Virus record (IMG/VR): IMGVR_UViG_3300045988_143600
Strand: one strand, 5' to 3'
DNA: 37,650 nucleotides
Origin: a virus
Under the pieces are notes generated by a model. The model made no database searches and was not told the origin of the DNA. It was given only the letters and a program-made list of their open reading frames with translations. Made by a program: the position numbers and the translations under genes. The stretch's first letter is position 1. Every line of letters begins with the position of its first letter. Shown in pieces: positions 6,193 through 25,335 of this stretch.

Positions 6193-6199
6193 AGCCGAG

Positions 6200-6623: not shown

Positions 6624-6635
6624 AATAAACCCTCC

Positions 6636-7088: not shown

Positions 7089-7113
7089 TAAAATTCCTCC
7101 TTTTTCGATTGAC

Positions 7114-7175
7114 GTTTAACGCTTTTTGTGTTAAACTTAATTTATCATGGGGTAACTATGCCCTAGAGGTTACCC
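7114..7175. promoter_or_regulatory. Operator-like inverted repeats in the repressor/early switch region
   Basis: GTTTAAC(N9)GTTAAAC at 7114-7136 and GGGTAAC(N12)GTTACCC at 7150-7175, between the early promoter and the first early gene. TTCTAA(T/C)T half-sites are repeated at 7199-7245. Confidence 0.5.
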
Positions 7176-7183
7176 TATAGTAA

Positions 7184-7212
7184 ATTATAACTAGATTTTT
7201 TCTAATTGTCAA
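7184..7212 (-). promoter_or_regulatory. Early promoter (consensus sigma-A type), minus strand
   Basis: The minus strand reads TTGACA-(17 nt)-TATAAT exactly, with the -35 at 7207-7212 and the -10 at 7184-7189. It faces the early operon. Confidence 0.65.
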
Positions 7213-7280
7213 GTGAAATTCTAACTCGAAATTAGAAAAATGCTAATTTCGTGATAAGTAACAAAGGAGATGATTGAATT

Positions 7281-7982: not shown

Positions 7983-8065
7983 TATAAAAATATGAAACTA
8001 AGCAACTTGTGCTTGATCTTCCGACTGTAGTGATTGTTCGAGCCGCACAGTGGGACATTGATAAG

Positions 8066-8089
8066 TTAATGGGAACTAGTTCCCATTAA
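8066..8089. repeat. Perfect 24-bp palindrome downstream of the repressor gene
   Basis: TTAATGGGAACTAGTTCCCATTAA. Followed by TAGTTCC repeats and a tandem ATTTTTCAAT(N3)ATTTTTCAAT at about 8128-8153. Confidence 0.7.
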
Positions 8090-8267
8090 TCGAATTTTTA
8101 GTTCCTATATTCCCGTATAAAATATGGAAATTTTTCAATGAGATTTTTCAATTGAACATTCAAACTATTTTATAAACGTTATAGCTTTAAAATGCGTAAA
8201 TACGCTGTTTTGTGACAATTTTAAAATTTGAAAACAGTTCTAAAACGTTCTAAAAAGGTAAAATTTA

Positions 8268-8316
8268 AAGGTCTTAAAATGCTTTTAAAATTGCATTTTA
8301 AGACCTTATTTTTTTG
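8268..8316 (+). terminator. Rho-independent terminator-like hairpin inside the phage left arm
   Basis: 15-bp perfect stem AAGGTCTTAAAATGC / GCATTTTAAGACCTT with a 10-nt loop, followed by ATTTTTTT. Confidence 0.6.
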
Positions 8317-8420
8317 ACATTCAATTTTCTTATCCGCAAAGCACGTCAACTTTTTGCATATTCAAACCGCCGCATTTGCGCCACTTTCGTGGGTTTTCTA
8401 TGCTAATTCCGAGTTATTCC

Positions 8421-8459
8421 GCATTTTTGCGTTTTTCGGATTTTGCGTGGCGAGCAACA
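8421..8459. repeat. Mu-like left terminal inverted repeat with sub-terminal TTTTGCG motifs
   Basis: The reverse complement reads TGTTGCTCGCCACGCAAAATCCGAAAAACGCAAAAATGC, which matches the right end at 23 of the first 29 positions. It ends in CA on the plus strand. Confidence 0.75.
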
Positions 8460-8667
8460 TCCTCGTGCCTTTAAATTTGTGATAATAAACATAAGATAAA
8501 CAGATACTTACCCGGTGGCTTCTTTAGTGCCAAAACTCTAAGAAAGTTTCATAGAGTGCTACCTATTATGCACACGTTCACGGCTACTACCTACCATTCG
8601 AGACTTTTCCGTTTCAGGCTGTCGTCATTCACCGATTTAATCGTAGTTATCTTTATGTTCGAGGACT

Positions 8668-8747
8668 TAGTACAATAATGTACTACCGACATATATAATA
8701 TACCCCATTTTTGTACTATTGTCAATAGAACAATTATGTACTATGAT
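8668..8747 (+). promoter_or_regulatory. Promoter/operator region of the XRE repressor gene
   Basis: Palindrome TAGTACAATAATGTACTA at 8668-8685. Near-palindrome TTGTACTATTG-T-CAATAGAACAA at 8711-8733, overlapping a TTGTCA -35 (8719-8724). After a 17-nt spacer comes TATGAT (8742-8747). A further TGTACTA lies at 8737-8743. Confidence 0.55.
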
Positions 8748-8777
8748 ATAATTTGTATAAATAAACAAATAAGTGAG

Positions 8778-9083
8778 GTGATTTTTATTAATTATTATCA
8801 AAGACTTAGAGATTTAAGAGAGGATATGGAACTAAATCAAAGCATGATAGCGAAAATTCTTGACACTTCTCAAAAGCAATATAGTAGGTGGGAAACAGGT
8901 GAATATCCTATCCCATTTGAAAAAGTTATACAGTTAGCAAAATTTTATAAAGTGAGTATTGATTATATAGCAGGACTGACGAATGACAAAAGGGGAATAG
9001 GCTACAAAGCAGACAGTAACAGCAAATACAACATAACACAGCAGAATAATAATAGCGCTGTTGTAAAAATTAAGGAGAAATAA
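8778..9083 (+). CDS. XRE-family HTH repressor of the inovirus-like element
   Basis: NYYQRLRDLREDMELNQSMIAKILDTSQKQYSRWETGEYPIPFEKVIQLAKFYKVSIDYI is a canonical HTH_3 domain. The start is uncertain. The ATG at 8736 lies upstream of the predicted -10. GTG at 8778 or ATT at 8787, after a GTGAGGTGA RBS, is more plausible. Confidence 0.7.
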   Translation: MIFINYYQRLRDLREDMELNQSMIAKILDTSQKQYSRWETGEYPIPFEKVIQLAKFYKVSIDYIAGLTNDKRGIGYKADSNSKYNITQQNNNSAVVKIKEK

Positions 9084-9317
9084 ATGTTTGGTTTAGACAA
9101 GACTTTAGCATATATACTTATAGGACGAATTATCATAGATGCGTTAATCTTTTTGCTTATTATTTATCTAATCTGCAAATTTCTTGACCTTTGCAAAACT
9201 GTTAATGATCTTTCAAAGAGGAACAAGGAGCAAACGGAACTATTGAAACAGCAGAATGAAACGCTTGTGAAACTAGGGCAAATCATCATAAAGATAAACC
9301 AAGACAAAGACGGATAA
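9084..9317 (+). CDS. Small membrane protein with C-terminal coiled coil
   Basis: TM segment LAYILIGRIIIDALIFLLIIYLI. Translationally coupled to the XRE gene (TAAATG). Confidence 0.55.
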   Translation: MFGLDKTLAYILIGRIIIDALIFLLIIYLICKFLDLCKTVNDLSKRNKEQTELLKQQNETLVKLGQIIIKINQDKDG

Positions 9318-9329: not shown

Positions 9330-9698
9330 CACACTTCAAGCCGTCGCCTAAACGGCGAGGATACAAAGTGCTGACCACTACGGATTAAAGTTGAGAAGCG
9401 GTGCTTGTTTGTAGCTCCGATATGACACAATCAGAACAAAGGGAACGCACAGCCTTGCGACAGTGTGCAGACCTGCACCCCAGAGGTGGGCGCGTGGCGA
9501 TGTCACACAAAGTTTTTCACTGCGTTCAAAACTTTGGCGACCGCCACTCAGGCAGGGGGCAGGCAAGGCGCACAGCACAGCTTTGTGCGCCCTGCACCCT
9601 CAACATTTAATGCTTCGGACATAAAAAACGCCCTGCGCACTTCGTGCGTGGGCTTGGGGTGGTAGAGGTCGTCGGTTCAAATCCGGTCACTCCGACCA
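9330..9698 (+). ncRNA. GC-rich structured non-coding island (candidate ncRNA or host-derived att arm)
   Basis: Nested perfect helices at 9494-9499/9542-9547, 9508-9516/9528-9536 and 9567-9574/9584-9591. A UUCG-type capped stem at 9632-9652 has G-U pairs valid only on the plus strand. CTGCACCC is repeated at 9473-9480 and 9592-9599. No convincing ORF is present. Confidence 0.3.
9655..9698 (+). other. tRNA-like 3' fragment / minihelix (T-arm, acceptor 3' strand, discriminator, CCA)
   Basis: GTCGG-TTCAAAT-CCGGT (T-arm) followed by CACTCCG-A-CCA. TGGGGTG at 9655-9661 can pair with the acceptor 3' strand. No D arm or anticodon arm is present, so this is not an intact tRNA. Confidence 0.45.
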
Positions 9699-9707
9699 AT
9701 ATGTAAA

Positions 9708-9742
9708 AACGGCTTTCCGCTATTGTGGAGAGCCGTTTTTTT
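9708..9742 (+). terminator. Rho-independent terminator directly after the tRNA-like CCA end
   Basis: 11-bp stem AACGGCTTTCC / GGAGAGCCGTT (one G-U pair) with an 8-nt loop, followed by a T-run. Confidence 0.75.
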
Positions 9743-9777
9743 AGTTGAATAGTGCTAAAGATTTTCACAAGTAAATA

Positions 9778-10207: not shown

Positions 10208-10259
10208 TTTAAAAACTCCTTTATTATTCAAATTTGAGATTATTCACAGCCTTGCACAT
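10202..10259. repeat. 58-bp direct repeat, copy B
   Basis: Partner of 9943..10000. Covers the integrase 3' end (…CKAVNNLKFE stop). Confidence 0.9.
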
Positions 10260-11114
10260 CTGATTAAAATTGCTATGTACATAACGCTGGGTAGTTGTTA
10301 TATCAACGTGTCCGAGCAATGCTCTAAGGGTTTCAATATCTGCACCGCACTGAATAAGATACGTAGCATAGCTATGTCTAAGCTTGTGCGGGGTGAGATA
10401 CTGTAAATCAGGATACTTTGTTTTTTGTTGCTCATAGAACGTTCTATAGAGCCTGTTATAACGTCTAAGAGATATTACTGTATGCGTTATAGGTGAAACG
10501 AACAGAAAGCCGTCTGAAACGTCCTGAGAGCGTATCTGATGAAGAATAGCTATTGCATTACTATGCAAGGGGATAAGCCTATCACGGCGAGATTTTGTGG
10601 TCTGTACAATCCTATCACCGCATGAAGTATGTACGAGTGTCTGACAAACTTTAAGATATCTGTTATCAAGGTCAATGTTATCCCAACTAAGAGCGAGAAG
10701 TTCACCACGGCGGAGACCTGTCTACAAGTCAAGCTGAAACATTCTGCAAACTCTACTATCATCATCAAAGAGATGTACGAGATTATCGGGGCTAAAATAT
10801 TCAGCTTCTTTTTTTATACGTTTTGGAGGTTTAATATAGTCGCAAGGGTTTTTGTCACAATAACCATTAACTATAGCTTCACGGAATACACGTTTAAGTA
10901 AGAAATATGAACGTCTTTGGCGGTCATTACTGTAAGATAGGGTGGATTTAAGACAATTCTGAATATCAATAGGCTTTACGCTCAGAAGCTCCATATCGGC
11001 TATATAACCGAAGTGTTTTTGATTTATATAGTAATAGTCCTTATAGCAATCATAGGCTATCACATCAACGCAGTATGCGTTATAGAACATCTCAAACCAT
11101 TCTTTAAAAATCAT
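10224..11114 (-). pseudogene. int: Tyrosine recombinase/integrase interrupted by a single in-frame TAG (10719..10721)
   Basis: The two track ORFs, 10722..11114 and 10224..10568, are in the same frame. Reading through gives ...MFQLDL*TGLRRGELLALSWDNIDL...HKLRHSYATYLIQCGADIETLRALLGHVDITTTQRYVH, which contains the R...HxxR...Y catalytic signature. Confidence 0.75.
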
Positions 11115-12112
11115 AGGACATCATCATTTCCATTCTCTTTAAGATATTGAAGTATATCATTGCAGTTCTTTTCGACTTGACTTGAAAAGGTGAAACTACT
11201 TTCATACTGATAACAGACATTAGCACGAGGGGGAGAAACTATCGGCAAATCGTCTTTAAAGTCTGAATTGCAAAAGATCTCTTTAGTTTTGCGGACAATG
11301 TTCTTGCTACTCCAGAAGAATTTGCCGAATATCTTCTTTACGTCCTTTGTTATGTACTTAGTGACATAGAAAGCTAAATTAGACATTTGTCCGTAAGTCT
11401 GAATAGCGGTTGAGAAACCATAACGCCAATCAGACACGTTATACACAACAGGCAAATCAGATATATCACAGCCGAGTTTATCACATATATGCAGGCGCTT
11501 TATAGTATCTATTTTAAGGGGCTTGTCATGACCCTTAACAAGACGTGTACCACTATCAACGAACTTAAAGTCACAATCGTTTATAAGGGCGTGGCAATGT
11601 ATACCGCCTTTTTTGTGATACTCAGGAACTAAGATATATTTAAGCCCTTTTCTACTAACTGCATTTTCAAGCCATTTTTTCAAAGGCTTTATGACTTCTT
11701 TAGGGTTTGTGCGGTCAAGGTTATCGCCATTAAAGGTAATAGTAAGGAAGTATTTCCAATCATTTTGATAAACTATATCAAAGATACTTTGCTTTGCTCT
11801 TTGAACACTATCGGAACGAACTTCACCGCTTTGTGACTGCTTATCTTTAAACTTACGAGTATCAAGCATATCAAGCATTATGTTTCCGTTTTCGTCCTCA
11901 TACTCAAAATAACATATGTAATTTTCACGAGCCGTTTTAAGTTGCTCTTGTCTTGAACGTTCGTCAATACTATGCTCATGCTTGCAGTGATACTCAAATG
12001 CAGGGTCTTTAAATATGTGTCGATCAGAACGTGTTATAGTGTAACTGCCGTCACGATATTCCTTTATCTTTGTATTGCACTTGACCTCTTTAGAAGACAT
12101 TTTTAGGGACAT
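11111..12112 (-). CDS. HUH rolling-circle replication initiator (Rep)
   Basis: Motif 1 is FLTITF, motif 2 (HUH) is GGIHCHALI and motif 3 is YVTKYITK. GGGAG RBS. Confidence 0.75.
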   Translation of the reverse strand: MSLKMSSKEVKCNTKIKEYRDGSYTITRSDRHIFKDPAFEYHCKHEHSIDERSRQEQLKTARENYICYFEYEDENGNIMLDMLDTRKFKDKQSQSGEVRSDSVQRAKQSIFDIVYQNDWKYFLTITFNGDNLDRTNPKEVIKPLKKWLENAVSRKGLKYILVPEYHKKGGIHCHALINDCDFKFVDSGTRLVKGHDKPLKIDTIKRLHICDKLGCDISDLPVVYNVSDWRYGFSTAIQTYGQMSNLAFYVTKYITKDVKKIFGKFFWSSKNIVRKTKEIFCNSDFKDDLPIVSPPRANVCYQYESSFTFSSQVEKNCNDILQYLKENGNDDVL

Positions 12113-12148: not shown

Positions 12149-12223
12149 GTGGCTAATATCAAGTAATAGCCACACGCACCGCAGGGCGGCGCAAGCGCTC
12201 GCCCCTGCGGTCGCTCGTGGCTA
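12149..12223. promoter_or_regulatory. GC-rich hairpin cluster, candidate rolling-circle origin or packaging hairpin
   Basis: Alternative stems TGTGGCTA (12149-12156) / TAGCCACA (12167-12174) and TAGCCAC (12167-12173) / GTGGCTA (12217-12223). The second pair encloses CCGCAGGG (12179-12186) / CCCTGCGG (12203-12210). This is the only GC-rich stretch in an AT-rich element, and it lies between the Zot-like stop and the Rep start. Confidence 0.5.
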
Positions 12224-13015
12224 TACGCCACGCCTTTTTCGCAGGTTTCTGCTTGTCTTTCTATCGTGCATGATGTCACTTGTGACATCTACTCCACGAT
12301 TGGCAAGTATTTCCGTGTCGCTGATGTACTCCTTATCAAGCATATTATCTACAAGCTGAGAAGTATCATATAGCTGTCGACTCTGATTAGTCTGCAAATA
12401 CAAACGGCTGTAAAGCTTTTTCGGCATATATGACTTATTCTCCGTATACGCTTCATACTCGTCTATATCATAGGTTTTAACCTTAATAAGACGTGTATAA
12501 GGGTGATGGAATGTAGCACGGCACGTTGACACTGTAGCCGTTATATCTCGTATCTGTTTATCAAGTAGATTAAATCGTTGCACTGTAGCAAGTATCATCA
12601 TTTTGCGCTTTCTACATTGACAAAGGTGCTGAAAAAGCGGTTTAGAGACGGCTCTTTTACCACCTGAGAAATCTCGTGAATTGAAGATAGTGCCTATCTC
12701 ATCAATTACGACTATACAATTCTTAGGAGCGTGCAGGATATCTTGTGCGGAATTAAGCTTATAAATATTCGTCCACTCAGGGAAGTTTTGAAGATTGATA
12801 TTTGTAAGTATAGACAACTGAGGATAACGCACGCAATAGTTATATGCTATCTGAGCAAGGGTTGAGGTTTTACCTGTTCCGAATTTACCGGTATAAAGAT
12901 GTATGCCCCAACCTTGAAAGATAGCGGAATTATTGAAGTATGCACCAAAAAGGTGGTCATATACCTCATAGGTGATAAAGGGCGGTATTTGTTTTATGTA
13001 GTCAAATATAATCAT
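12221..13015 (-). CDS. pI/Zot-like P-loop morphogenesis ATPase
   Basis: Walker A is GKFGTGKTS and Walker B is CIVVIDEIG. Size and position after the small TM genes are as in inoviruses. No clear C-terminal TM segment was seen, so the assignment is by family resemblance and context. Confidence 0.6.
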   Translation of the reverse strand: MIIFDYIKQIPPFITYEVYDHLFGAYFNNSAIFQGWGIHLYTGKFGTGKTSTLAQIAYNYCVRYPQLSILTNINLQNFPEWTNIYKLNSAQDILHAPKNCIVVIDEIGTIFNSRDFSGGKRAVSKPLFQHLCQCRKRKMMILATVQRFNLLDKQIRDITATVSTCRATFHHPYTRLIKVKTYDIDEYEAYTENKSYMPKKLYSRLYLQTNQSRQLYDTSQLVDNMLDKEYISDTEILANRGVDVTSDIMHDRKTSRNLRKRRGV

Positions 13016-13708: not shown

Positions 13709-15463
13709 TCACGTAGGTAAAACAAGCTTGATAAGCGCAATAGCTAAGAACAGCACAAACCATGCAGAGAACACAGCATAAAACCATGACGGCAAACAAG
13801 AAAGAGCGGCGGTGAGAAAATCCCAATATGTACCCGTTGTACTGAATATAGATTTTATATCCGTGAAATCAACAGAGCCGAAATTTGCATTAATTTTTTT
13901 CTTATCAAGATATTTGTTATAATCATCAGGTTGCATATATGAACCATCATTTATAACACCATCTGAACCCTTAGCAAGGTCAACGTCAGTGACCTTTGAC
14001 GGCGGTATATTACACAAGTCTTTAAGCTTTGTAGTCGAGGGATTATAAGTATTTCCGTCCTTGTCTTTATATACTTTAGGTACATAATCAGGAAACTTCT
14101 CATAAGAGAAAGGGTCTGAAATAACAGAATAAACACGATAAGCCTTGAATGTTTCAGGCTTGCCTGTTTCTTCATCAACGGACTTTACAAAATCATCAAT
14201 CTTCTCACACGTCTTAAGGTTTGTAAAATCTTCTTGATAGGCATACGAGCCGAGCCACGTTGAAGAATTTGTATCTTCTGTTTTTTCACCATTCTGAGGA
14301 GTAACATGACCGTTATTCTTTACAAATACACCGATAACATTAACATAAAGCTTGCTATCATCAGTAAGACCATGTGTTTTATAATCAATAGAAGTGAGAT
14401 CAAAAGATACAGTAATCTTGCCGTCACGAGGAATAGTATAAATAGGCGTTCGACCTTGATATAATGTTAAATACGGCTCAAAAGTATCAACAGTATCATT
14501 ACTATTCAAATCGTCAGAAGAAGAGCCGTCAGACTTAATTTTTTCATCATCTTGACCCTTGTAGTAATTGCCGTCATGGTTCATTGCATAAAGCACAACA
14601 TCTTCATCAAAGAAACGTTGTAGATCATCACCAGCGTTAAGAAGATTTTTTGAAAGACAACATAAAACGGCATAAGTGCCAGAGCCGTAAGCTTTTCCTA
14701 AGTCTTTTTCATTGAACGTTTTTAAAAACTCAGGTGAAAGCTTTATATCAAGGTTTATATTATTATTTTCAGCTGCTACAAGTCCATTTTCATCAGCATT
14801 AGCACCACCCTTTGACGGATAGTAAATTTTATTTTGCATATTCAATGAAAGTTCAGGTGTATATGTAACAGTAAACGGAGCAGGAACAACGGTGGGGTCT
14901 GTAGGGGTTACATCTTTATCAGGGTTAGACCAATCATAAACCTTAGCATTATGATAATAAACATAGGTATCAGCACCATTATCAGAATCGACACCAACGT
15001 GCATAGCAACACCGCAACTAACACTGGATATATCACCTATATTGGCAGAAAATTCAAAAAGACTAGATTGAGCTTTAAATACAAGTTGATTTTTATCATT
15101 ATAGCGATAAACATACCGATATGTTTTGTTGTCATCAGAATGACGATGATAATTTGAAATATAAAATTGTGATTGATTCAAAGTATCTATATCACCGCCG
15201 CTCAAATTAAGGTAAAATTTTTGAACAGTGTCAGGAACAAGATATATAAGAGAGTACTCTTTGCGGTTAGGCGAATAAAAGGCTATATATGAATCGGGTG
15301 TAAAACCCAAGTCAGAATTTATTTTTTTCAACGCCATATCAATAAAAAGTTTCATACCACCAGAACCATCAGACTGCTTTAAAGCGAATGCAGGAACAGC
15401 ACAACATATCATCACAACAAGTGCAGAGATCATACACAACACTTGCTTAATCTTTTTTCTCAA
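13709..15463 (-). CDS. pIII-like minor coat/adsorption protein (signal peptide plus C-terminal membrane anchor)
   Basis: The N-terminus MRKKIKQVLCMISALVVMICCAVPAFA is signal-like. The C-terminus WFYAVFSAWFVLFLAIALIKLVLPT is a membrane anchor. It is the largest ORF and follows the coat gene, as gene III does in Ff-type phages. TTG start. Confidence 0.55.
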   Translation of the reverse strand: MRKKIKQVLCMISALVVMICCAVPAFALKQSDGSGGMKLFIDMALKKINSDLGFTPDSYIAFYSPNRKEYSLIYLVPDTVQKFYLNLSGGDIDTLNQSQFYISNYHRHSDDNKTYRYVYRYNDKNQLVFKAQSSLFEFSANIGDISSVSCGVAMHVGVDSDNGADTYVYYHNAKVYDWSNPDKDVTPTDPTVVPAPFTVTYTPELSLNMQNKIYYPSKGGANADENGLVAAENNNINLDIKLSPEFLKTFNEKDLGKAYGSGTYAVLCCLSKNLLNAGDDLQRFFDEDVVLYAMNHDGNYYKGQDDEKIKSDGSSSDDLNSNDTVDTFEPYLTLYQGRTPIYTIPRDGKITVSFDLTSIDYKTHGLTDDSKLYVNVIGVFVKNNGHVTPQNGEKTEDTNSSTWLGSYAYQEDFTNLKTCEKIDDFVKSVDEETGKPETFKAYRVYSVISDPFSYEKFPDYVPKVYKDKDGNTYNPSTTKLKDLCNIPPSKVTDVDLAKGSDGVINDGSYMQPDDYNKYLDKKKINANFGSVDFTDIKSIFSTTGTYWDFLTAALSCLPSWFYAVFSAWFVLFLAIALIKLVLPT

Positions 15464-15533: not shown

Positions 15534-15689
15534 TTATACAGCGTGTCTGAACTTTGCGAAAAGTCCTGCACCAGAGCCGAGAAGAGACAGACCTACAAGA
15601 ATTGCAATAGGTACGTTGCTTGTCATAGCGTCCCAACAAGAACCAAAAACAGTAACGGCATTACTAAGCATTGTTGTTACAGCTTCCAT
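15534..15689 (-). CDS. pVIII-like major coat protein (51 aa), below the ORF-track cut-off
   Basis: Hand translation gives MEAVTTMLSNAVTVFGSCWDAMTSNVPIAILVGLSLLGSGAGLFAKFRHAV. It has an acidic N-terminal part, a single TM helix and a basic C-terminus (K, R, H). AAAGGAG RBS. Confidence 0.6.
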   Translation of the reverse strand: MEAVTTMLSNAVTVFGSCWDAMTSNVPIAILVGLSLLGSGAGLFAKFRHAV

Positions 15690-15743
15690 TATTAGCAAAA
15701 CTCCTTTCTTATTAAATTTTTATAACAGCGGTTTCACCGCTAA

Positions 15744-16061: not shown

Positions 16062-16097
16062 GTTTTTTTCCTTTCTGAGGTTTTTCGGCTTTTCCTC

Positions 16098-16150
16098 TGA
16101 TGTTTGACAAGCAAAATCCAAAAAACTGACAAGCAAAACGCAAAAAAGTG
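16098..16150. repeat. Mu-like right terminal inverted repeat with tandem TGACAAGCAAAA sites
   Basis: TGATGTTTGACAAGCAAAATCCAAAAAAC starts with TG. TGACAAGCAAAA occurs at 16105-16116 and 16127-16138. ACGCAAAAA (16139-16147) is mirrored by TTTTTGCGT near the left end. Confidence 0.75.
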
Positions 16151-16191
16151 ATGAAATGTTTCAACAAAACGAAACACTCATCACTTTTTTT
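16142..16191. terminator. Bidirectional terminator-like hairpin just inside the phage right end
   Basis: 13-bp perfect outer stem AAAAAAGTGATGA / TCATCACTTTTTT with inner stem GTTTC/GAAAC. Flanked by A- and T-runs. Confidence 0.7.
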
Positions 16192-16221
16192 GAATTATCG
16201 AGAATTTTTGAAACGTATTTT

Positions 16222-16413
16222 TTACAGCTCTAAAATGTCATTTAAATCGCATTTTAAAAATCTGCAAATCAGCTCAAGATGTGAAAATTTGAAACCGACA
16301 GCGATGTTATTGCAAAGCTGTGAGATTGTGGACGGTCTGATGCCTGTCGCCTGCGCAAGTTCAGCCTGAGTAATGCCCCTGGAATTAAGCAAAGCCCTTA
16401 ATTTTACTCTCAT
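16222..16413 (-). CDS. Small XRE/Cro-type HTH protein (last gene at the phage right end)
   Basis: LRALLNSRGITQAELAQATGIRPSTISQLCNN is an HTH motif. GGAGG RBS. Confidence 0.65.
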   Translation of the reverse strand: MRVKLRALLNSRGITQAELAQATGIRPSTISQLCNNIAVGFKFSHLELICRFLKCDLNDILEL

Positions 16414-16440
16414 GATTACCTCCGGTATGTTTTTTACAAC

Positions 16441-16465
16441 ATAAATAACGAAATCCGTTATTTAT
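16441..16465. promoter_or_regulatory. Perfect 10-bp inverted repeat upstream of the small HTH gene (operator-like)
   Basis: ATAAATAACG-AAATC-CGTTATTTAT, located between the Dam stop and the HTH start. Confidence 0.45.
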
Positions 16466-16480
16466 TCTCTAAAAAAAATA

Positions 16481-17218
16481 CTAGAAATTTGTGATTATTA
16501 CCTCTTTGAAATCACCTGATGAAAGACTGTTATTGCGGGTGACCGCCTGAATATTGTAGTCTTTATACAGGTCTCTCACATACTTGTCATCGTTGTACGA
16601 CAGTACAAATCTGCCCTTGATCTGGTGAAGAACTCTGCAGAGCCGCTCATGGTCATCCTCGGTAAATTTAACAGTGTAATGCCGCTCTGTCTTGTGGTAT
16701 GGAGGGTCGCAGTAGAATAAAGCTTTCTCACGGTCGTATACCTTGATAAGATCCTCAAAATCTTTGTTTTCGATCACTACTCCATCCAGTCTTGCCTCGA
16801 TATCTGCGAAATTATCTGTGTTAAGCCGCTTTTTGTTGCAGCCGAACGTTCTCAGACTTGCTCCGAAGCCTGTCTTGACAAGCACATAGAACATAGCAGC
16901 CCGCTGAATGTCTGTAAATCCGGTTACAGATATGCGCTCACGGCAGTCAAGGAACATTTCCCGGCTGTTTAAATAGTATTTTATCTCCTTTTTAAGCTCA
17001 TCAGAATGATATTTTAAGCATCTGAAAAAGTTGACCAAATCACTGTTGGCGTCATTATAGATCTCTAGATCAGCGTGTTTGCCTTTTGCAAAAAGTATAG
17101 ACCCGCCTCCGCCGAATACATCGATAAATCTGTTGTAGCTTTCAGTAGGCGGGAAAGACTTGATGATCTTACTTTTAAGCTGGCTCTTTCCACCAATCCA
17201 TGGTATTGGACTTTTCAT
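16481..17218 (-). CDS. dam: Dam-type N6-adenine DNA methyltransferase (D12 class)
   Basis: N-terminal PIPWIGGKSQL, FGGGGS (AdoMet binding) and the catalytic DPPY (FYCDPPYHKT). Confidence 0.85.
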   Translation of the reverse strand: MKSPIPWIGGKSQLKSKIIKSFPPTESYNRFIDVFGGGGSILFAKGKHADLEIYNDANSDLVNFFRCLKYHSDELKKEIKYYLNSREMFLDCRERISVTGFTDIQRAAMFYVLVKTGFGASLRTFGCNKKRLNTDNFADIEARLDGVVIENKDFEDLIKVYDREKALFYCDPPYHKTERHYTVKFTEDDHERLCRVLHQIKGRFVLSYNDDKYVRDLYKDYNIQAVTRNNSLSSGDFKEVIITNF

Positions 17219-17279
17219 AAATATGACCTCCTTTTAATATAGTATACAGCTCCGAGCGGATTGCCCGGAGCTGTTACTT

Positions 17280-17507
17280 TTAAATCTTTTTAAGCCAATC
17301 AGCAACAACATAATAATGCTTGCGACCAAGCTTGATTTTTCTCCAGTAGTGACTGTGATGAAATTCATAAAAATCATCAGCGACTTTTACCGGAGTATTA
17401 TCTTCGAGAACGCCAACGATCGTTCCGGCGGTGAAGTTGCAATCGCTCCTGTAATTAAGCCTAGTGACTGTCACCATTTGGCTGTATGATGTTTCTTTTG
17501 TATCCAT
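17280..17507 (-). CDS. Stand-alone SH3b-like domain protein
   Basis: 75 aa. VTRLNYRSDCNFTAGTIVGVLEDNTPVKV...WRKIKLGRKHYYVVADWL fits a bacterial SH3 pattern. It lies downstream of the endolysin. Confidence 0.45.
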   Translation of the reverse strand: MDTKETSYSQMVTVTRLNYRSDCNFTAGTIVGVLEDNTPVKVADDFYEFHHSHYWRKIKLGRKHYYVVADWLKKI

Positions 17508-17518
17508 AAGCTACTCCT

Positions 17519-18394
17519 TTACTTTATCGTTGCAGACAGCTTTTTAATAAATTTAGTCCCCGCAATACCGTTCTGAGTATAGCCCCACTTTTTCAACAGA
17601 GCATTGACCGCCTTTAGGGTACCGTCTCCGAACGTGCCGTTGTTGTCAAGTTTGTACCCTGCCAGCATAAGGAGCTGTTTCAGTGCAAGAACTCCATCGG
17701 ATTTATCACCTTTCTTAAAGCCCGAACTGTCAAGTACCTTAGACGTGCTTGTGTTAGTAGCCTTAAACCCGTTAAGCCCCTTAGCCTTTATCACAGATGG
17801 GTAATCCACATAGCAGTAATCCATGTCTACCGGCACGGAAACACCGCTGACCTTGCCCGTTGAACTGTACTGCCACATACCGTATGTGCCGCCGTAGTTG
17901 CACTTGCTGTTGTATTCTGCAATCCACAGTGCATAGCGTCTTGCGACATCATTTGTTATGTAAGTCTGGAGCGGACTGCGGCTGATATACAGACCTGCGA
18001 AGTAGCCTGCTTCCTCCAGCGCAGTGCAAAAAGTTTTTACCATGTCGGAGCATACCGTTTTACCGCGTGCAAAAGCTTTCTGCCACTCCAGATCAAAGTA
18101 AATCGGGTATTCAAAAGTTTTGCCCTTGATGTAATCGAGACAAAGAACTGCGTCCTGTTTCGCACCGGATACCGTTGTCTGCCATGTATAGTAATATGCA
18201 CCGACGTCAAGCCCAGCTGCCTTTGCATTTTTGTAATGCGTTTCAAAAAGCGGGTCTTTTACTACACAGTTCTTCGTGTGATCCCAGTTATTGCATCTGA
18301 TAATAACAAAACTGTAGCCCGCCGCTTTGACCTTTGCGAAATCTACGTTTGTCTGATACATAGAAACATCAATGCCTTTAATTGTCGCTGCCAT
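17519..18394 (-). CDS. Endolysin: GH25 muramidase with C-terminal peptidoglycan-binding domain
   Basis: The N-terminal KGIDVSMYQTNVDFAKVKAAGYSFVIIR is characteristic of GH25. The C-terminal GDKSDGVLALKQLLMLAGYKLDNNGTFGDGTLKAVNALLKKWG is PG_binding_1-like. Confidence 0.85.
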   Translation of the reverse strand: MAATIKGIDVSMYQTNVDFAKVKAAGYSFVIIRCNNWDHTKNCVVKDPLFETHYKNAKAAGLDVGAYYYTWQTTVSGAKQDAVLCLDYIKGKTFEYPIYFDLEWQKAFARGKTVCSDMVKTFCTALEEAGYFAGLYISRSPLQTYITNDVARRYALWIAEYNSKCNYGGTYGMWQYSSTGKVSGVSVPVDMDYCYVDYPSVIKAKGLNGFKATNTSTSKVLDSSGFKKGDKSDGVLALKQLLMLAGYKLDNNGTFGDGTLKAVNALLKKWGYTQNGIAGTKFIKKLSATIK

Positions 18395-18590
18395 GATAAT
18401 TATCCTCCTTGTTATTTTTATAGTTTTTCTGATACTGCGTGCCGAAATAGAACGATATCACCACAGTAAACACCGTGATGAACTGCTCTGCTGAAATCGT
18501 GCGGCGCAGTGCCAGCACGCAAAACACCGCTGTCAACAATATCGTCACGATAGACTTGACGTCTATAAGCTTTGCAAATTTCTGTTTCAT
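18378..18590 (-). CDS. Holin (two TM segments)
   Basis: 70 aa, with TM segments IVTILLTAVFCVLAL and FITVFTVVISFYFG and a charged C-terminus. It lies immediately upstream of the endolysin and overlaps it. Confidence 0.7.
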   Translation of the reverse strand: MKQKFAKLIDVKSIVTILLTAVFCVLALRRTISAEQFITVFTVVISFYFGTQYQKNYKNNKEDNYHGSDN

Positions 18591-18597
18591 ATCTTGC

Positions 18598-19284
18598 TCA
18601 CTCCTTTATCTCAAAAGCAAATCTGCTTAACAGATATTTCTTGCCGTTAAGCAGCACTGTCTGCGTGGGCACTGCATAATCAGGATAGTAGTCGCTGTCA
18701 TTCTGCCCCGATGTGTGTGAAAGAATGTGATAAAGGTTTGTAAAGCCTTTGTTCAAAGTCGACGATGTCACAGGTGTGAAAGAGGTCAGCCACTTGCGCC
18801 GACACACAGGTCTGACAGGCACAGACTTTATCGTCATTCCGTCAGTAAATACAGAACATAACCGTATGTTGTTGTCTGCACAGCTTGTTGCCAAGCCGTA
18901 CCCCTTTTCCTGCGTTTCATAGTCTGTTACCTCGCCGATAACGATGTTAATGCCTGGGCGGTCATTCTGATTGCCGTCAATGCCTATGGCTGCCAAGCCG
19001 TCCTGTTTGTATATGACCCAACGCCTTTTTGGAGAGATGTTGCTATAAGTTCCAACACATGGACAAGTCAAATCTTCCGTTCGCAGGTCAATCCAGCCGT
19101 TTGTTCCCGTGTCGCTGAATTGACCACGCAGAAACACCTCATCAGTGACCCACAGATTGAATACAACATCATTCGTGCTGAGTGTTGCACCCTCGCCCTC
19201 ATAGACTATCTTTTTAAAGTCCCACACCTCGATAAGCTTTGTTATCAGCCCTCTCAGTCCGTCTGTGCCCTCATATATTTTCAT
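18598..19284 (-). CDS. Tail-tip / putative receptor-binding protein
   Basis: 228-aa ORF, the last of the tail module before the lysis cassette. The function is inferred from position only. Confidence 0.4.
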   Translation of the reverse strand: MKIYEGTDGLRGLITKLIEVWDFKKIVYEGEGATLSTNDVVFNLWVTDEVFLRGQFSDTGTNGWIDLRTEDLTCPCVGTYSNISPKRRWVIYKQDGLAAIGIDGNQNDRPGINIVIGEVTDYETQEKGYGLATSCADNNIRLCSVFTDGMTIKSVPVRPVCRRKWLTSFTPVTSSTLNKGFTNLYHILSHTSGQNDSDYYPDYAVPTQTVLLNGKKYLLSRFAFEIKE

Positions 19285-19480
19285 CTTCGACCGCCTCCGC
19301 TATGCCTGTTATACCTATATTTCCGTACGCTTCTCCCACTGACACTCCCACAAGGCTCTGTCCGCTCGCCATATCGGGTATAGTGTCGATAATATCCATA
19401 TTGCCGTTGAAGTCCTCGATGCTGAACCTGTCCGACCTGTCGGGCTTTTTAAGTCCGAGATTTTCCGTGAAACTAGCCAA
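19271..19480 (-). CDS. Small tail fibre-associated protein
   Basis: The N-terminal FTENLGLKKPDRSDRFSIEDFNGNMDIID pattern is common at tail-fibre N-termini. Confidence 0.45.
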   Translation of the reverse strand: MASFTENLGLKKPDRSDRFSIEDFNGNMDIIDTIPDMASGQSLVGVSVGEAYGNIGITGIAEAVEDENI

Positions 19481-20054
19481 CTATACTTCCCCCTTCCGCA
19501 TTTTTGCCGACTATGAGATAGTACACCTTGAAAGCGTATGTGCCGCCCTGGTCTGAGGTGTGCTCAAGGTATGCCTCCCAGTCGATGTCCCTGCTGTTGC
19601 TTGCGACTTTGTATTGAAAACTCTGCGACTTGAAGTGCTTTTTGCCCCAGTCGCACACCATAAACACCGCAGGGTTAGTGACCCCCGAGGGTATCATGCC
19701 TGTGCGTGTATTGTAAGTCCATTGTGAGCCGTTGTCGGCGTTGACCTTCATATTCACCGTGAAAGACCCCCACCGCATATACAGTGGGTAGAGCCTGTTC
19801 ACAAGACTTACTATCTGCGCCGCTGTCTTTGCACGAAACACCGCTGTACCGCCGTCTAAAAGCTCGTCCGTCTGTTCGCCCGAGTACCGCAGCTCATACT
19901 CCTCCTCGCCGACTATTTCTTCAAGTGCCGCCACTCTCGCCGTAAGCTGCTGGATAAGCTCCTCGGTGGTGGGCGTTGTCTGACCTGTGTCTGCTGTATC
20001 GGCAGTTTTCTCCGCCTGCGTATCAGCTACAGTTGTTATCTCGTTCTCGTCCAT
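19473..20054 (-). CDS. Tail fibre / tip protein with coiled-coil segment
   Basis: Low-complexity T/A/D-rich N-terminus, then EELIQQLTARVAALEEIV. Located in the tail module. Confidence 0.45.
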   Translation of the reverse strand: MDENEITTVADTQAEKTADTADTGQTTPTTEELIQQLTARVAALEEIVGEEEYELRYSGEQTDELLDGGTAVFRAKTAAQIVSLVNRLYPLYMRWGSFTVNMKVNADNGSQWTYNTRTGMIPSGVTNPAVFMVCDWGKKHFKSQSFQYKVASNSRDIDWEAYLEHTSDQGGTYAFKVYYLIVGKNAEGGSIVG

Positions 20055-20065
20055 AATCTCGCCTC

Positions 20066-21226
20066 CTAAAGCTGTTCTTCCACAGACAGACCCACCGCAG
20101 AAATATCGGCTGAAAGTCCGCCGTCAAAATTGAATCCTATGTTAGTTATTGGTATATCGTAGCTTTCGCCGCTTTCGCTGACGTATGTTATCACGTCCCC
20201 GACGTCAAATCGTGGGTCGCCAAGGCGGTGAAAAAGCTCCGTTGTATACCACGAAAAGCCGCCTATCCTATGCCACAATGACCGCAGCAGCGACATTGTC
20301 ATATATGGATTTTCAAACTCCAGCACACGCCCTGCCGAGCCTGTGGTATTGCCCAGCCGCAGAGTTTCGCTGTCGCTGACCTTACAGACAATGCCTGCCA
20401 AAACATTCGGACGTTCTCCCAGTGTTGGCAGGTCGATAGTGTTGTTGTCCAGTATCTTCACGCTCGAGCCGTACCATTTGCGGACGTATCTGCCGTATCG
20501 GTCAACAAAACTGAACTCGCCTTGTGCCGAAGCTATGTAACTGAGCATCTGCCGCATTGTGGTGTCTTTGGGTATAGAGCTTATTTTGAAGTCGAAGTTT
20601 GCAGTTTTCAGCCTTATGTGACCCTTGCCGTAAAGCCTTGCACCGCCCTTTACACGGAGCTTTGCAGGGATGGTGTAGTCGTTGCCGTTTTGCAGTCCAA
20701 GCTGCTTGCATATGTCGTCCTCGACAGCCTTTGACCACGCAGGTAGCTTGACCTTTGGCACATAGGTCTTGTCGGAGAAGTAAAGCCTATCCGCAAAAGT
20801 GACCTCAGTATTTCCGCCCGACTTTTTCGATTTCACGCAGGTGAACCGCCCCAGAGGTATTCTCTCTCCGTCAAGCACCTCTCCAAGCTTGCTTATCTGC
20901 TCCACTGTCAGCTTTGAAAGTTCTGCGTAGGTGTAGGCTTCTAGGGTGGAGTAGGTGGTCACGCCTGTGAGGTCTGCAAGGTACAGGGACAGGTCATACT
21001 CTTTGCCGAGGAAACGTGTTTCAGCATCGTTTATCTGTAATGCCCAAGACTGTGAGCACACTGCACCAAGCTCTATGTCGTCACTGAGGCTCGTTGACTG
21101 CACGTCACTGGTAGCGGACATTATGTTGTCCCCCATTATTACGCTCTCGTCGTTTTCAAGCCACATACGCCATGTGCGGCAGTAGCTTTCGATGCGTGAG
21201 GAGACGGTTGTACTTGTTGTATACAT
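20066..21226 (-). CDS. Tail-associated protein (Tal position)
   Basis: 386-aa ORF, the second gene after the tape measure. Assigned by synteny only. Confidence 0.5.
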   Translation of the reverse strand: MYTTSTTVSSRIESYCRTWRMWLENDESVIMGDNIMSATSDVQSTSLSDDIELGAVCSQSWALQINDAETRFLGKEYDLSLYLADLTGVTTYSTLEAYTYAELSKLTVEQISKLGEVLDGERIPLGRFTCVKSKKSGGNTEVTFADRLYFSDKTYVPKVKLPAWSKAVEDDICKQLGLQNGNDYTIPAKLRVKGGARLYGKGHIRLKTANFDFKISSIPKDTTMRQMLSYIASAQGEFSFVDRYGRYVRKWYGSSVKILDNNTIDLPTLGERPNVLAGIVCKVSDSETLRLGNTTGSAGRVLEFENPYMTMSLLRSLWHRIGGFSWYTTELFHRLGDPRFDVGDVITYVSESGESYDIPITNIGFNFDGGLSADISAVGLSVEEQL

Positions 21227-21237
21227 ATATCCGCCTC

Positions 21238-21606
21238 CTACTGCATGATAAGGTCAACAGCAACGCCTTTGCAAAACTGCCGCTTTTCGTCCCAGCCGAA
21301 TATTTCATAGCTTGGATCTCCTGCATAGACCCTTATTTTGATTTCATTAAAAGTCTCGTCCAAAAGTGTGGCGTTAAAAAATGGGCTATCAACATTTGAG
21401 ATATACTTATTTATCTGTGCAGTCTGCTCGCCTGTGAGATGATACCATTTAATAGTGACCGTTTTCTTTATAGCCCTGATGTCTCCGACCATAAGACAAT
21501 TAGCGGTGCGCCCTGCATTGCCCGACCAGATTTTATTGTTACAAAAAGTAATTTCAGCAGGAGTGGCTACCGTTTCTTCTTCAAATTTCAATCCATTTGA
21601 TTTCAT
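21238..21606 (-). CDS. Small tail component (distal tail protein position)
   Basis: 122-aa ORF immediately after the tape measure gene. It is shorter than a canonical Dit. Confidence 0.45.
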   Translation of the reverse strand: MKSNGLKFEEETVATPAEITFCNNKIWSGNAGRTANCLMVGDIRAIKKTVTIKWYHLTGEQTAQINKYISNVDSPFFNATLLDETFNEIKIRVYAGDPSYEIFGWDEKRQFCKGVAVDLIMQ

Positions 21607-21616
21607 AGTATCCCTC

Positions 21617-24580
21617 CTATACTTTTATCGGCGATTTGCCGTTGCGCTTGATAAAATCATTTATATCGTCAATAACGATCTGTGACAGCACTCTGCCCTT
21701 TACTTCGATTGGTATCGTTACGCTTATTTTCTGATTGCCTACAGCTCCGCCGTAAACAGCAAGCGCCTCAAACAAAGCCTGCTTGATCGTATCCAGCGGA
21801 GCTTCGATGTTTGTGCCGCGTTTCTGGTCGCCGAGAACCGCAAGAAACTCGGAGTTCGGCGGAATTACCGCGCCGGTGGCGAGCATTGGAATCTGAGGAA
21901 CTGGTATAGGGTCATAGTCCCAAAACTCATCAAATGGTGTAAAGCCTGCTATTTCAATATCACGAATATCATTAAGTATGCCATTAAGAAAATCCAGTGG
22001 AGTAGAAATAACTTTATTTATTCCGCCAATTATGCCGTTTACAACCGTTGTGAATACTCCTGTTATACCCTCTTTGATACCGTCAAAAATTTTGCCACCA
22101 GTCGAAAATACGTCCTTAACTGCTTGCCAAGCCTTTGAAAATATATCTTTAAACCAATCAGCTACCTTAATAAACGGTGATTTTATTGCAGTCCACAAAT
22201 CCCTGAAAAATTGTGCTGTAGCCGAAAACGCCGATTTTATATTTGTCCACGCAGTTGTAAATATATCTCCAAACCAACTTCCTACTGCAGAAAAAATGTC
22301 TTTGATTCCTGTCCACAGATTTGAGAACCAACCTATAACGGCATTCCAGACAGACAAAATACCGTCCCAAGCTGCTTGGAAAATTCCCGTAAACCATTCT
22401 GCCACGACGGCAAATACATCTTTTATGCCTTGCCATATTCCGGCGAAAAAGTCTTTAATTGATGTCCAGACCTCTGTTACCCAGTCTACAAATTGCTGTA
22501 TGGTCATTTTAAAGCTGTCCCACAAATCAATAAAAAACTGTTTTACTGTTTCCCAATTTTTGTACAGCAATACGCCGATAGCGATAAGCGCACCGATTCC
22601 TAGACATACAAGTGTGATTGGACTCGTCAAAAAATTAACTGCTACACCAAGTGCAGTAATTAACGGTGTCAATACACTTGTTCCTGCCGCCAATGCGGCA
22701 AATGCACTTACTACGCCTTGAATTATTCCGGATATTGCAAATGCCGATCCCAAAGTCCCAACTACAACAGCAAAATTTTCGACAGCAGTCTGATGATTCT
22801 TTATCCAGTCACTAACCCCATTTAAGGCTGATGTAATACCTTTCAACGCGCCTACTATAATACCTCCGGTCCATGTTGCAATAGGCTTCAAAAATTTATC
22901 CCACAGCCATTTACCCATAGGTTTTAACGCTGAAATTGCTGAATCAAGAACTTTTATAGCTGCCGCCAGCAAATTAAGAAATGTTGGTATCAAAGTACTT
23001 ATAGTCCATGATGCCATAGGGAGCAAAATATTATCCCAGAACCATTCGATACCGTCAAATATGTCGGCAGTTAAAGGCTTTAATGCGGATGTTACATTTT
23101 CAAATGATGTAATGAGAGGTGAGAAGTCAATGTTCTGCGCCCATTCAACAGTGTCTGCCGTTATGTTTTCAATTGTGTCGAGTATATCATTAAAAATATC
23201 AAGAATGTCCTGAATAATTTTTGTACCACTGCTATCAGACCAAGCGGAGGAAAAATTGCGTGACACATATCCGATTGTATTATTAATGTTTGTCCATATA
23301 CCGAGTAAATGTTCAGAAATTTGTTCGCCCGTTCCGTTACTCCAAACATCGGTGAATGATCCGCCTATGCTTTTGATAACACTCCATACACCCTCGAAAG
23401 CAAATCTCATACTATCTGTTACCTTGACTCCATTTTTATCCCAAGCTTGTTTAAATGGCGTAAAAATAGTATTAAAAGATGATTTTACCCAATAAAAAAA
23501 ATCTTTAAGCTTTTTATCGGCATCAGATGTATCAACATCTACAGTAGTGGAGATCGTATTGCCGCTTAGAGTACCGACCACTGGCGATGCATTTGTATCA
23601 GATGAGGAACTGTTGTCCGCCAGCTTATTTATCTGATCAAAGCTTGCAAGTGCATTTTCTTGAGCCTCGACAGTAGCTTCAGCCGATGTTGCCATATCGG
23701 AATAATTTTCCACCGCCTGCGAAGAACTTTCAGCAACTCCATCTGTTGTATTCATCAGTTTAATTCCAAACACCTCAGAAAGTGCTTTAACTGCTGAATT
23801 AGCAACAGCTGTCAAACTTTGCAATTCCGCTGTTATGTTTTTTACAACTGTTACAGCACCAGAAAGAACAGGCTGTCCTATTACAGCAAGCAACTGTTTC
23901 CAAGACTCTTTCAGATTACCGATGACATTTTCCCAGCCGTCTGCTTCTCGCGCGGCTTGTCCCTCCGCTCCAGAAAGAGCATTTGCATCCTTGACCATTT
24001 GCAATAGTGTAAGTTGCTTCTGAGCTTCGGATAATTCCATAAATGATTTTCCATAGAGTTTATTAGCCGCTGTGTTTCGCGTAGTTTCTGTACAACTCAA
24101 ACCCAAAGCAGCATCGTTTTCAAAGTTGCCTTTCAAGAACGATTTTAGGCTTTCTGCAGTATCTTCAAGGCTTCGATCGTAATATGCCGCACTGTCTGCT
24201 GTTACCTGCAACGCTTCTTCCATCATTTTTAGAGCACTAACTGAATCCATACCCGTAGTTTTAGCAAAAGCATAAATAGATGTGCCTACATTTTGAAGTC
24301 TTGTCTGAAGAATGCTACTGTTATCAGCTACACTTTTCATAGCATTATCTGCAGCAGATTTTAAAGTTCCAAAAGTCTGTTGCATTTGAGAATTTGCAGC
24401 ATTTATATCTGCAGCAGCTTCAAGAGCTTCTTTTCCACTGAACACAGTACCAAGTGCTGCACCCATTTTTAAAACTATATTTCGGAGATTATTAAGCTGG
24501 TTACCTAAACTGTTTATACCTTTGGAAAATCCTTTTGTATCTATTTTTGTATCGAAATTAAGTCTGCCGTCAATTGCCAA
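21617..24580 (-). CDS. Tape measure protein
   Basis: 987 aa. N-terminal helical region, central glycine/hydrophobic TM-like block (…GALIAIGVLLY…) and repeated W/F-x-D/N-I-F motifs. It is the largest gene in the tail module. Confidence 0.9.
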   Translation of the reverse strand: MAIDGRLNFDTKIDTKGFSKGINSLGNQLNNLRNIVLKMGAALGTVFSGKEALEAAADINAANSQMQQTFGTLKSAADNAMKSVADNSSILQTRLQNVGTSIYAFAKTTGMDSVSALKMMEEALQVTADSAAYYDRSLEDTAESLKSFLKGNFENDAALGLSCTETTRNTAANKLYGKSFMELSEAQKQLTLLQMVKDANALSGAEGQAAREADGWENVIGNLKESWKQLLAVIGQPVLSGAVTVVKNITAELQSLTAVANSAVKALSEVFGIKLMNTTDGVAESSSQAVENYSDMATSAEATVEAQENALASFDQINKLADNSSSSDTNASPVVGTLSGNTISTTVDVDTSDADKKLKDFFYWVKSSFNTIFTPFKQAWDKNGVKVTDSMRFAFEGVWSVIKSIGGSFTDVWSNGTGEQISEHLLGIWTNINNTIGYVSRNFSSAWSDSSGTKIIQDILDIFNDILDTIENITADTVEWAQNIDFSPLITSFENVTSALKPLTADIFDGIEWFWDNILLPMASWTISTLIPTFLNLLAAAIKVLDSAISALKPMGKWLWDKFLKPIATWTGGIIVGALKGITSALNGVSDWIKNHQTAVENFAVVVGTLGSAFAISGIIQGVVSAFAALAAGTSVLTPLITALGVAVNFLTSPITLVCLGIGALIAIGVLLYKNWETVKQFFIDLWDSFKMTIQQFVDWVTEVWTSIKDFFAGIWQGIKDVFAVVAEWFTGIFQAAWDGILSVWNAVIGWFSNLWTGIKDIFSAVGSWFGDIFTTAWTNIKSAFSATAQFFRDLWTAIKSPFIKVADWFKDIFSKAWQAVKDVFSTGGKIFDGIKEGITGVFTTVVNGIIGGINKVISTPLDFLNGILNDIRDIEIAGFTPFDEFWDYDPIPVPQIPMLATGAVIPPNSEFLAVLGDQKRGTNIEAPLDTIKQALFEALAVYGGAVGNQKISVTIPIEVKGRVLSQIVIDDINDFIKRNGKSPIKV

Positions 24581-24598
24581 TTATATCAGCCTCCTTTC

Positions 24599-24627
24599 TT
24601 GACAAAATCCTCCATACGCTGTATAAT
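24599..24627 (+). promoter_or_regulatory. Consensus sigma-A promoter driving the plus-strand moron
   Basis: TTGACA (24599-24604), a 17-nt spacer, then TATAAT (24622-24627). It overlaps the RBS region of the divergent tape measure gene. Confidence 0.7.
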
Positions 24628-24656
24628 GAAAAAAATACATAATGGGAGGAAATGTT

Positions 24657-25334: not shown

Positions 25335-25335
25335 T

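Follow-up and report, generated by a model that had tools for sequence, protein, structure and literature searches.

The window analyzed here is a stretch of 37,650 nt whose first 55 nt are repeated at its end, leaving a unique length of 37,595 nt. The repeat is assembly overlap, the signature of an assembler-closed circle. Two elements make up the window (Table 1). One is a Mu-like phage of ~30 kb (29,957 bp after subtraction of the 55-nt overlap), and the other is an integrative inovirus that occupies positions 8460-16097 and measures 7,633 bp when 16097 is joined to 8465. What such contigs present as a "circular 37.6-kb viral genome" is in reality a pair of phages. They reside in an Oscillospiraceae bacterium of the human gut (Hominimerdicola aceti/'Ruminococcus sp.'). 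The methyltransferase of the Mu-like phage was present in 25,178 index blocks and the product of the first inovirus ORF in 6,115 index blocks. Among GenBank phages, the Mu-like part was matched by one unannotated faecal contig alone, and the inovirus had no close match. The right end of the Mu-like phage was not found in GTDB species representatives. No complete tRNA was found in the window by ARAGORN, the tRNA-like stretch being an attP fragment only.

Table 1. Positions of the features of the Mu-like phage, the inovirus and the insertion site in the window.
Feature	Position	Strand	Remarks
Mu-like transposable prophage, left-end part	1..8459	-	left end at 8459
MuB-like AAA ATPase	2279-3202	-	AAA_22 7.6e-15; MuB position directly downstream of transposase gene
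MuA-type transposase, 672 aa	3206-5224	-	HTH_Tnp_Mu_2 4.5e-11, Mu-transpos_C 1.3e-10, rve/DDE_2 5.3e-07
S24/CI-type repressor gene	7281-7982	+	at phage left end
Terminator hairpin + U7, phage left end	8269..8315	+	downstream of repressor gene
Target-site duplication copy 1, TCCTC	8460..8464	.	
Operon leader body, 'type A' cassette	8465..8690	-	now on promoter side, running into phage left end
Operator-like palindrome TAGTACAATAATGTACTA	8668..8685	.	just downstream of operon promoter -10
Predicted operon promoter, TTGACA-17-TATATT (11/12)	8697..8725 (8725->8697)	-	
Predicted XRE-gene promoter, TTGTCA-17-TATGAT	8719..8747	+	-35 overlaps -35 of operon promoter
Operator-like site TAGAACAATTATGTACTA	8726..8743	.	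over spacer and -10 of XRE promoter
XRE-family (HTH_3) regulator gene	8736..9083	+	true start probably later in ORF
77-aa membrane ORF	9084..9317	+	co-oriented with XRE gene
att region	9653..9747	-	3' part of tRNA-Pro(GGG); attP configuration in window
Tyrosine integrase gene	10224..11114	-	in-frame TAG at codon 131 (10722-10724)
Rolling-circle replication initiator (Rep)	11111..12112	-	REP_ORF2-G2P 2.8e-15; PHROG 3419 1.1e-13
Zot/pI-type assembly ATPase	12221..13015	-	Pfam Zot 2.8e-08 (past cut-off)
584-aa pIII-position protein	13709..15463	-	N-terminal signal-like and C-terminal TM segment; no family match
54-aa coat-like TM protein	15534..15698	-	terminator-like hairpin after gene
First ORF of operon, 105 aa	15744..16061	-	ATG 16061-16059
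Operon leader stub, 36 nt	16062..16097	-	carries GAAAGGA ribosome-binding site; nearly invariant in all relatives
Target-site duplication copy 2, TCCTC	16093..16097	.	
Mu-like transposable prophage, right-end part	16098..37650	-	right end at 16098; continues via contig ends into 1-8459
Two 22-nt direct repeats (TGACAAGCAAAA...), candidate transposase-binding sites	16105..16148	+	right end
Bidirectional intrinsic-terminator hairpin, phage right end	16142..16190	.	part of phage in other loci examined
63-aa HTH protein gene	16222-16413	-	second of last two phage genes, outward-facing
D12 adenine methyltransferase gene	16481-17218	-	among last two phage genes, outward-facing

The first-pass annotation had called the larger element a Mu-like insertion. 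Its MuA-type domains, MuB-like AAA ATPase, left-end S24/CI repressor, target-site duplication (TSD) and many flanks bore this out, identifying it as a Mu-type transposable phage. All MuA-type domain matches (HTH_Tnp_Mu_2, Mu-transpos_C, and DDE_2) were past the Pfam cut-offs. The MuB-like label of 2279-3202(-) rests on a generic AAA_22 match and gene position, and no MuB-specific model matched. Terminase, portal-type, scaffold, and tail genes are also encoded. The last two genes of the phage, for the HTH protein and the methyltransferase (16222-17218), are on the same strand as the inovirus operon and end 124 nt from the phage end.

The right end of the phage starts at 16098 with TGATGTTTGACAAGC..., and the left end closes with ...GGCGAGCAACA at 8459. 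The termini are of the TG...CA form (TGATG.../...AACA), and there is an imperfect inverted repeat between the two ends. More than 30 other insertions of the same phage define these ends. The right terminus was fixed to the base by nine chromosomal loci that match up to ...GTCAAACATCA and diverge beyond it, and the same stop was seen in 18 IMG/VR contigs. The left terminus was fixed likewise by 10 loci that match up to ...GAGCAACA. The right end was seen with at least 16 distinct flanks and the left end with 10, indicating that the phage has inserted at many unrelated sites in different genomes. For a second insertion, in a DUF2461 gene (locus L025 compared with L020), removing the phage and one AAAAG restored a 235-codon ORF. 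As AAAAG is also duplicated there, a 5-bp duplication is the rule for this phage. The features of the Mu-like class observed here were a MuA-type DDE transposase, a 5-bp TSD, TG...CA termini and many sites. Replicative transposition in lytic growth and packaging of host DNA at the ends of the virion DNA are further traits of this class.

Strong terminator hairpins lie at both phage ends, ~50-190 nt from the termini (z -5 to -6), and transcription of the phage appears to be sealed off from the flanking DNA at every site of insertion. The hairpin at 16142-16190 has ~20 bp followed by U6, with A/T runs at both sides. Its folding energy was -23.6 kcal/mol on the minus strand (z -5.3) and -20.5 kcal/mol on the plus strand (z -5.0). 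The strong bidirectional terminator that had been proposed just inside the phage end is therefore real by folding energy and z on both strands. Other RNA elements were matched in the phage as well. Two type II hammerhead ribozymes, 5493-5566(-) and 6149-6220(-), scored 57.7 and 57.0 bits against a gathering score of 37. One strand carries both, ~650 nt apart, in the early region upstream of the transposase gene. A RAGATH-28 RNA was matched at 35779-35870(-), near the late genes, with 46.9 bits.

The element that received the insertion is of the inovirus type, as had been suggested: it carries a Zot/pI ATPase, a G2P-type Rep, a tyrosine integrase, an XRE regulator, and small TM proteins. The gene order is first ORF, coat, pIII-like, Zot, Rep, and integrase, in the company of the small TM proteins and the XRE regulator. 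The product of 12221-13015(-) also matched PHROG 1675 ('protein I of M13', 1.7e-10) and the Zot-like PHROG 197. As the coat and pIII-like proteins had no family matches, they were assigned by architecture only. The 7,633-bp genome is within the ~5-15 kb of inoviruses, and its 54-aa TM ORFs and the large pIII-like protein precede the ATPase in the order expected of them. Zot, Rep, and this architecture make the element a predicted inovirus. The first ORF had been labeled 'gene V-like'. That label is by position only, and no credible match was found in Pfam, PHROGs, NCBIfam, or PDB. Its AlphaFold model had a pLDDT of 40 and was built from a shallow alignment of only 13 near-identical homologues. 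A comparison with M13 gVp by hhalign was negative (probability, 0.2).

Two non-coding stretches of the inovirus were also observed. A 13-bp terminator-like hairpin with a T-run, 15489-15518(-), directly follows the 54-aa coat-like gene. Ff phages have a strong terminator at the same position, after gene VIII. The stretch 9340-9650(-), beside the att core, is GC-rich (55-60%) in an element that otherwise has 36% GC. Folding gave several long hairpins for the operon-sense strand (z -3.95) but none such for its complement (z -1.4), and Rfam had no match. The stretch may be a packaging signal of the inovirus or its minus-strand origin.

The att region of the window contains a 47-nt core (9653-9699) that is identical to attL/attR of chromosomal copies. 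The order in the window is that of attP, with the inovirus right arm, the 3' part of tRNA-Pro, and the inovirus left arm. A complete tRNA-Pro was present at attR in L003, L005, L009, L052, L054, and L060, and the first-ORF product was also found in chromosomal prophages beside an FGGY-kinase gene and tRNA-Pro(GGG). The chromosomal flanks are an FGGY-kinase side and a tRNA-Pro/tRNA-Met side. The integrase gene has the length of the intact 296-codon gene of relatives, and the remaining inovirus genes also match the lengths of their counterparts. W131 of the relatives' intact integrase (296 aa) is a TAG codon in the window, just before the catalytic-Arg motif. The window copy thus lacks the intact integrase of a tRNA-targeting element. 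The TAG allele is not private to the window, as it occurred in 753 index blocks, ordinary chromosomal prophages included. At L061/L064, a 100%-identical inovirus has different left-hand DNA (Zn-ribbon genes) and a shorter att match. Either elements with the TAG allele still move, through a helper integrase or TAG suppression, or the L061/L064 locus has been rearranged. The tRNA-Pro locus is a prophage pile-up: tandem copies of the same inovirus were seen (L006/L007), a second, unrelated inovirus with its own Rep, Zot, and integrase adjoins (L005, L053, L056, and L058), and IS elements (DDE_Tnp_1 and rve) flank or truncate the inovirus (L054, L055, and L057).

We compared the insertion site with empty-site alleles. 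In the window, the ATG at 16061 is preceded by a 36-nt stub, 16062-16097, that ends with TCCTC, and the phage begins at 16098, in agreement with the coordinates given at first reading. The chance of a 5-nt match is 1/1024. The uninterrupted inovirus copies in L054, L057, and L061/L064 were 99.8-100% identical to the window and had a single TCCTC at the insertion point; BLAST pieces against them overlapped by exactly 5 nt. More distant relatives with 96-97% identity (L001, L003, L010, and L011) also aligned unbroken across the restored join. Since the restored 7,633-bp sequence aligns unbroken to empty-site copies, the insertion, its direction, and the duplication are established. The phage boundaries and the empty-site alleles also confirmed that ~30 kb of phage DNA parts the operon from its control region.

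The target, 16075-16096, just outside the phage right end, resembles the phage left-end repeat 8425-8446. On the operon strand, the target reads GGAAAAGCCGAAAAACC and the left-end repeat CGCAAAATCCGAAAAACGC, with CCGAAAAAC in common. The target also pairs 82% with 16110-16126. In DNA this rich in A, such likeness could have arisen by chance. In L051 (IMGVR_UViG_3300045988_173332, 7277-7573), a member of this inovirus family has received another, independent insertion of the Mu-like phage. There the phage interrupts the 77-aa ORF that follows the XRE gene, at the equivalent of window position 9197, and its right end points toward the XRE side. We considered whether the inovirus is a preferred target and rejected this: one of the 16 independent flanks (L051) is suggestive, not significant given viral-contig ascertainment.

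To locate the control region, a scan for sigma-70-type consensus promoters was applied to the window and to eight relatives. The operon promoter had been placed in 8460-8735, divergent from the XRE gene and its TGTACTA operators, and the scan found an 11/12 site there. The site, 8725->8697, is the only strong promoter-like site that faces the operon, and it is ~230 nt upstream of the insertion. In the restored sequence, it is 268 nt upstream of the ATG, and the insertion is 36 nt upstream of the ATG. The two 18-nt TGTACTA-type palindromes were found nowhere else in the window, with 0.01 such matches expected by chance. The phage now separates the promoter, the operators, the XRE gene, and ~226 nt of leader from the ribosome-binding site and every gene of the operon.

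The eight relatives had a common arrangement. One 11-12/12 promoter was always beside the regulator gene, with at least four different operator/-10 sequences among them, and no promoter-like site was found between the regulator-side promoter and the ATG in any of the eight. Their promoters are 250-270 nt upstream of the ATG, or ~450 nt when two leader cassettes are present. Their regulators are XRE proteins of 115/114, 103, and 85 aa and a 68-aa HicB-like protein. The sequence common to all regulator variants resumes ~50 nt before the ATG, and the phage inserted inside that stretch. The leader consists of two unrelated, interchangeable cassettes, type A, as in the window, and type B, with GAGCAAAGCGAA repeats and a GC-rich hairpin. 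L006 and L009 have cassette A followed by B, and the cassettes combine freely with different regulators (L002-L011, about 9700-9950). The leader had no credible Rfam match as a structured RNA at E<=1 over 8460-10000, and the type A leader RNA folded no better than shuffles (z -0.57).

The DNA that now precedes the operon was scanned with the same criteria. No promoter-like site was found on the operon strand in the 640 nt upstream of the ATG, so the proposal that the operon has no independent promoter there, in 16062-16097 or in the phage right end, stands at the sequence level. No TA dinucleotide occurs in the 85 nt that part the terminator from the ATG, and a TAnnnT -10 box is therefore impossible there. 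A hybrid promoter based on the outward TTGTCA in the phage end was also considered and rejected, as no -10-like hexamer is present at 16-18 nt and there is no TA. The scan found no promoter for the phage's own last two genes either, which indicates that its sensitivity is limited. Inside the operon there are weak (9/12) promoter-like sites, which could keep downstream genes, such as Rep, expressed.

These results suggested the following course of events. A Mu-type prophage entered the inovirus operon leader by DDE transposition, producing the 5-bp TSD TCCTC. The operon genes now sit behind a strong terminator and an 85-nt stretch unable to hold a -10 box. This copy of the inovirus operon would have lost its normal repressor-controlled transcription through a polar, promoter-severing insertion, and the XRE gene would keep its own promoter. 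We estimate at about 80% the probability that a Mu-like phage lies inside the inovirus operon leader, has severed the promoter, and has deprived this operon copy of its repressor-controlled transcription. Silencing of the operon is the likely outcome, judging from the predicted promoters and terminator.

The same junction was searched for elsewhere by protein look-ups in ENA and Logan assemblies. An identical junction was found in at least five other assemblies (L060, L062, L063, L065, and L066), with 99.9-100% identity over 5-11 kb. They came from three samples of one ENA data set, one further ENA assembly, and one Logan assembly. Carriers of the composite include the HILD21 samples SAMEA7519159, SAMEA7519160, and SAMEA7519192. 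The exact Mu::inovirus junction was not found in IMG/VR or JGI metagenome contigs. Among the 24 longest contigs with the exact pIII-like variant, 23 had phage genes beside the operon and one had an intact site, where places were grouped by shared neighbouring genes. Beyond the att core, L060 has an entire tRNA-Pro gene and host DNA that matches the attR flank of L054/L057 at every position, indicating that the composite in L060 is a chromosomal nested prophage at tRNA-Pro. Because a near-identical junction recurs and is once chromosomal, the insertion must be recent and passed down within a single lineage, as opposed to random lytic transposition.

Several other explanations were weighed against a silencing insertion. 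The insertion might rewire the operon instead of silencing it, if phage transcription at the right end partly passed 16142-16190; the operon would then be on in the lytic phase of the Mu-like phage and no longer under XRE control. The last two phage genes (16222-17218) are oriented like the operon, which makes read-through of the terminator the main route to this outcome. These genes are probably the tail of a late operon, a single terminator separates them from the inovirus operon, and the ribosome-binding site of the stub is intact. The hairpin, however, is long (~20 bp, -23.6 kcal/mol, z -5.3, then U6), and it is kept as part of the phage in the other insertions examined, which fits an insulator that normally stops read-out. 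We consider rewiring unlikely. It is still less probable, in fact very improbable, that the composite works as a unit and not as a dead inovirus with a passenger, although recurrence of the junction in several data sets is compatible with it. If it did, there would be three versions. In a first version, transcription from the XRE-controlled promoter would enter the left end of the phage, antisense to its repressor gene but in the direction of the early transposition operon, so that inovirus derepression would be coupled to Mu-like induction. In a read-out version, late Mu-like transcription would reach the inovirus assembly genes. In a filament version, the 37.6-kb replicon would be extruded as a very long filament, which would offer non-lytic transmission to a transposable tailed phage.

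The physical form of the composite was considered in the same way. That the junction is an assembly chimera of the Mu-like phage and an unrelated inovirus contig is effectively refuted, even though both elements are very common in gut metagenomes and hence often co-occur. Both junctions are exactly at the termini set by more than 30 other insertions, the matching 5-bp duplication is of a sequence that is single-copy in the empty site, and assemblies built from other data sets with other assemblers contain this junction too (ENA assemblies of two or more further sources and one from Logan). The window circle may reflect a genuine episome, tandem copies, or closure by the assembler. As an episome, the Mu-like phage would have entered the replicative form or an excised inovirus, and the 37.6-kb composite would persist like a plasmid; this is conceivable but doubtful. 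It would account for the window closing on itself by a 55-nt overlap and for an att in the attP configuration, with phage arms flanking the tRNA-Pro core. Yet an identical composite is integrated at tRNA-Pro in another sample. Moreover, the exact repeat common to attL and attR is ~57 nt long, no shorter than k=55, which allows a de Bruijn assembler to produce a false circle, and the tandem prophage copies in relatives (L006/L007) also create attP-like joints. In addition, Rep would be severed from its promoter and a TAG nonsense codon interrupts the integrase gene, so maintenance and excision would need help in trans. The local conclusion that the leader is severed is unaffected by the nature of the circle.

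With the promoter-severing insertion as the preferred reading, the composite would show, in a clear-cut natural case, how one temperate phage disables or takes over the control of another. Comparing relatives has also given a map of the promoter, the operators, and the swappable regulator regions of the inovirus. For virome studies, it is a caution that a circular composite contig can be two phages and that an att repeat may be what closes its circle. The empty site is present in Hominimerdicola aceti Sanger_31 (locus L023), a relative of the host that is in culture; together with the exact empty-site allele, this makes the polar effect directly testable.

The closest known parallel is the polar insertion of phage Mu. 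Mu insertions in lac and other operons abolish the expression of downstream genes, and Mu insertion mutations in E. coli were reportedly described by Taylor in 1963. The mechanism proposed here is the ordinary, classical one, a new example that implies no new kind of system. The shared features are near-random DDE transposition, a 5-bp duplication, and a ~30-kb insert between promoter and genes, and the phage here has, like Mu, a MuA-type transposase, a putative MuB-like ATPase, and a repressor gene at its left end. Unlike Mu of E. coli, it has a Gram-positive Oscillospiraceae host. The relation to Mu is distant and was recognized by domains, and the structural genes differ (Phage_min_cap2 and Phage_scaffold). 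Another difference from the classical case is that the target is the regulatory leader of another prophage, not a host operon, with polarity here being predicted.

As in other nested or interrupted prophages, one mobile element interrupts another, and the same inovirus has also been hit by IS elements (L054 and L055) and by the L051 insertion. Unlike the usual nested prophages, the inserted element is a whole transposable phage, four times as large as the element it entered, and is located exactly between promoter and genes. A literature search found no described case of a Mu-like phage inside an inovirus.

The inovirus itself can be compared with CTXphi, in which the rstR repressor gene is divergent from the rstA promoter and rstR/ig-2 variants are immunity-specific. 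Similar to the case of CTXphi, a small repressor gene is divergent from the main-operon promoter, and the operators overlap both promoters. The repressor-plus-operator region is in both a swappable mosaic beside a conserved structural/replication module, and both have a Zot/pI ATPase, tandem prophage arrays, and chromosomal integration. A difference is that the operon here opens with a 105-aa ORF and coat genes and has Rep after Zot. Whereas CTXphi uses XerCD/dif, this inovirus has its own tyrosine integrase and a tRNA-Pro attP. Its leader is also different, with a length of ~260 nt, and homology to CTXphi was compared at the level of the Zot family only.
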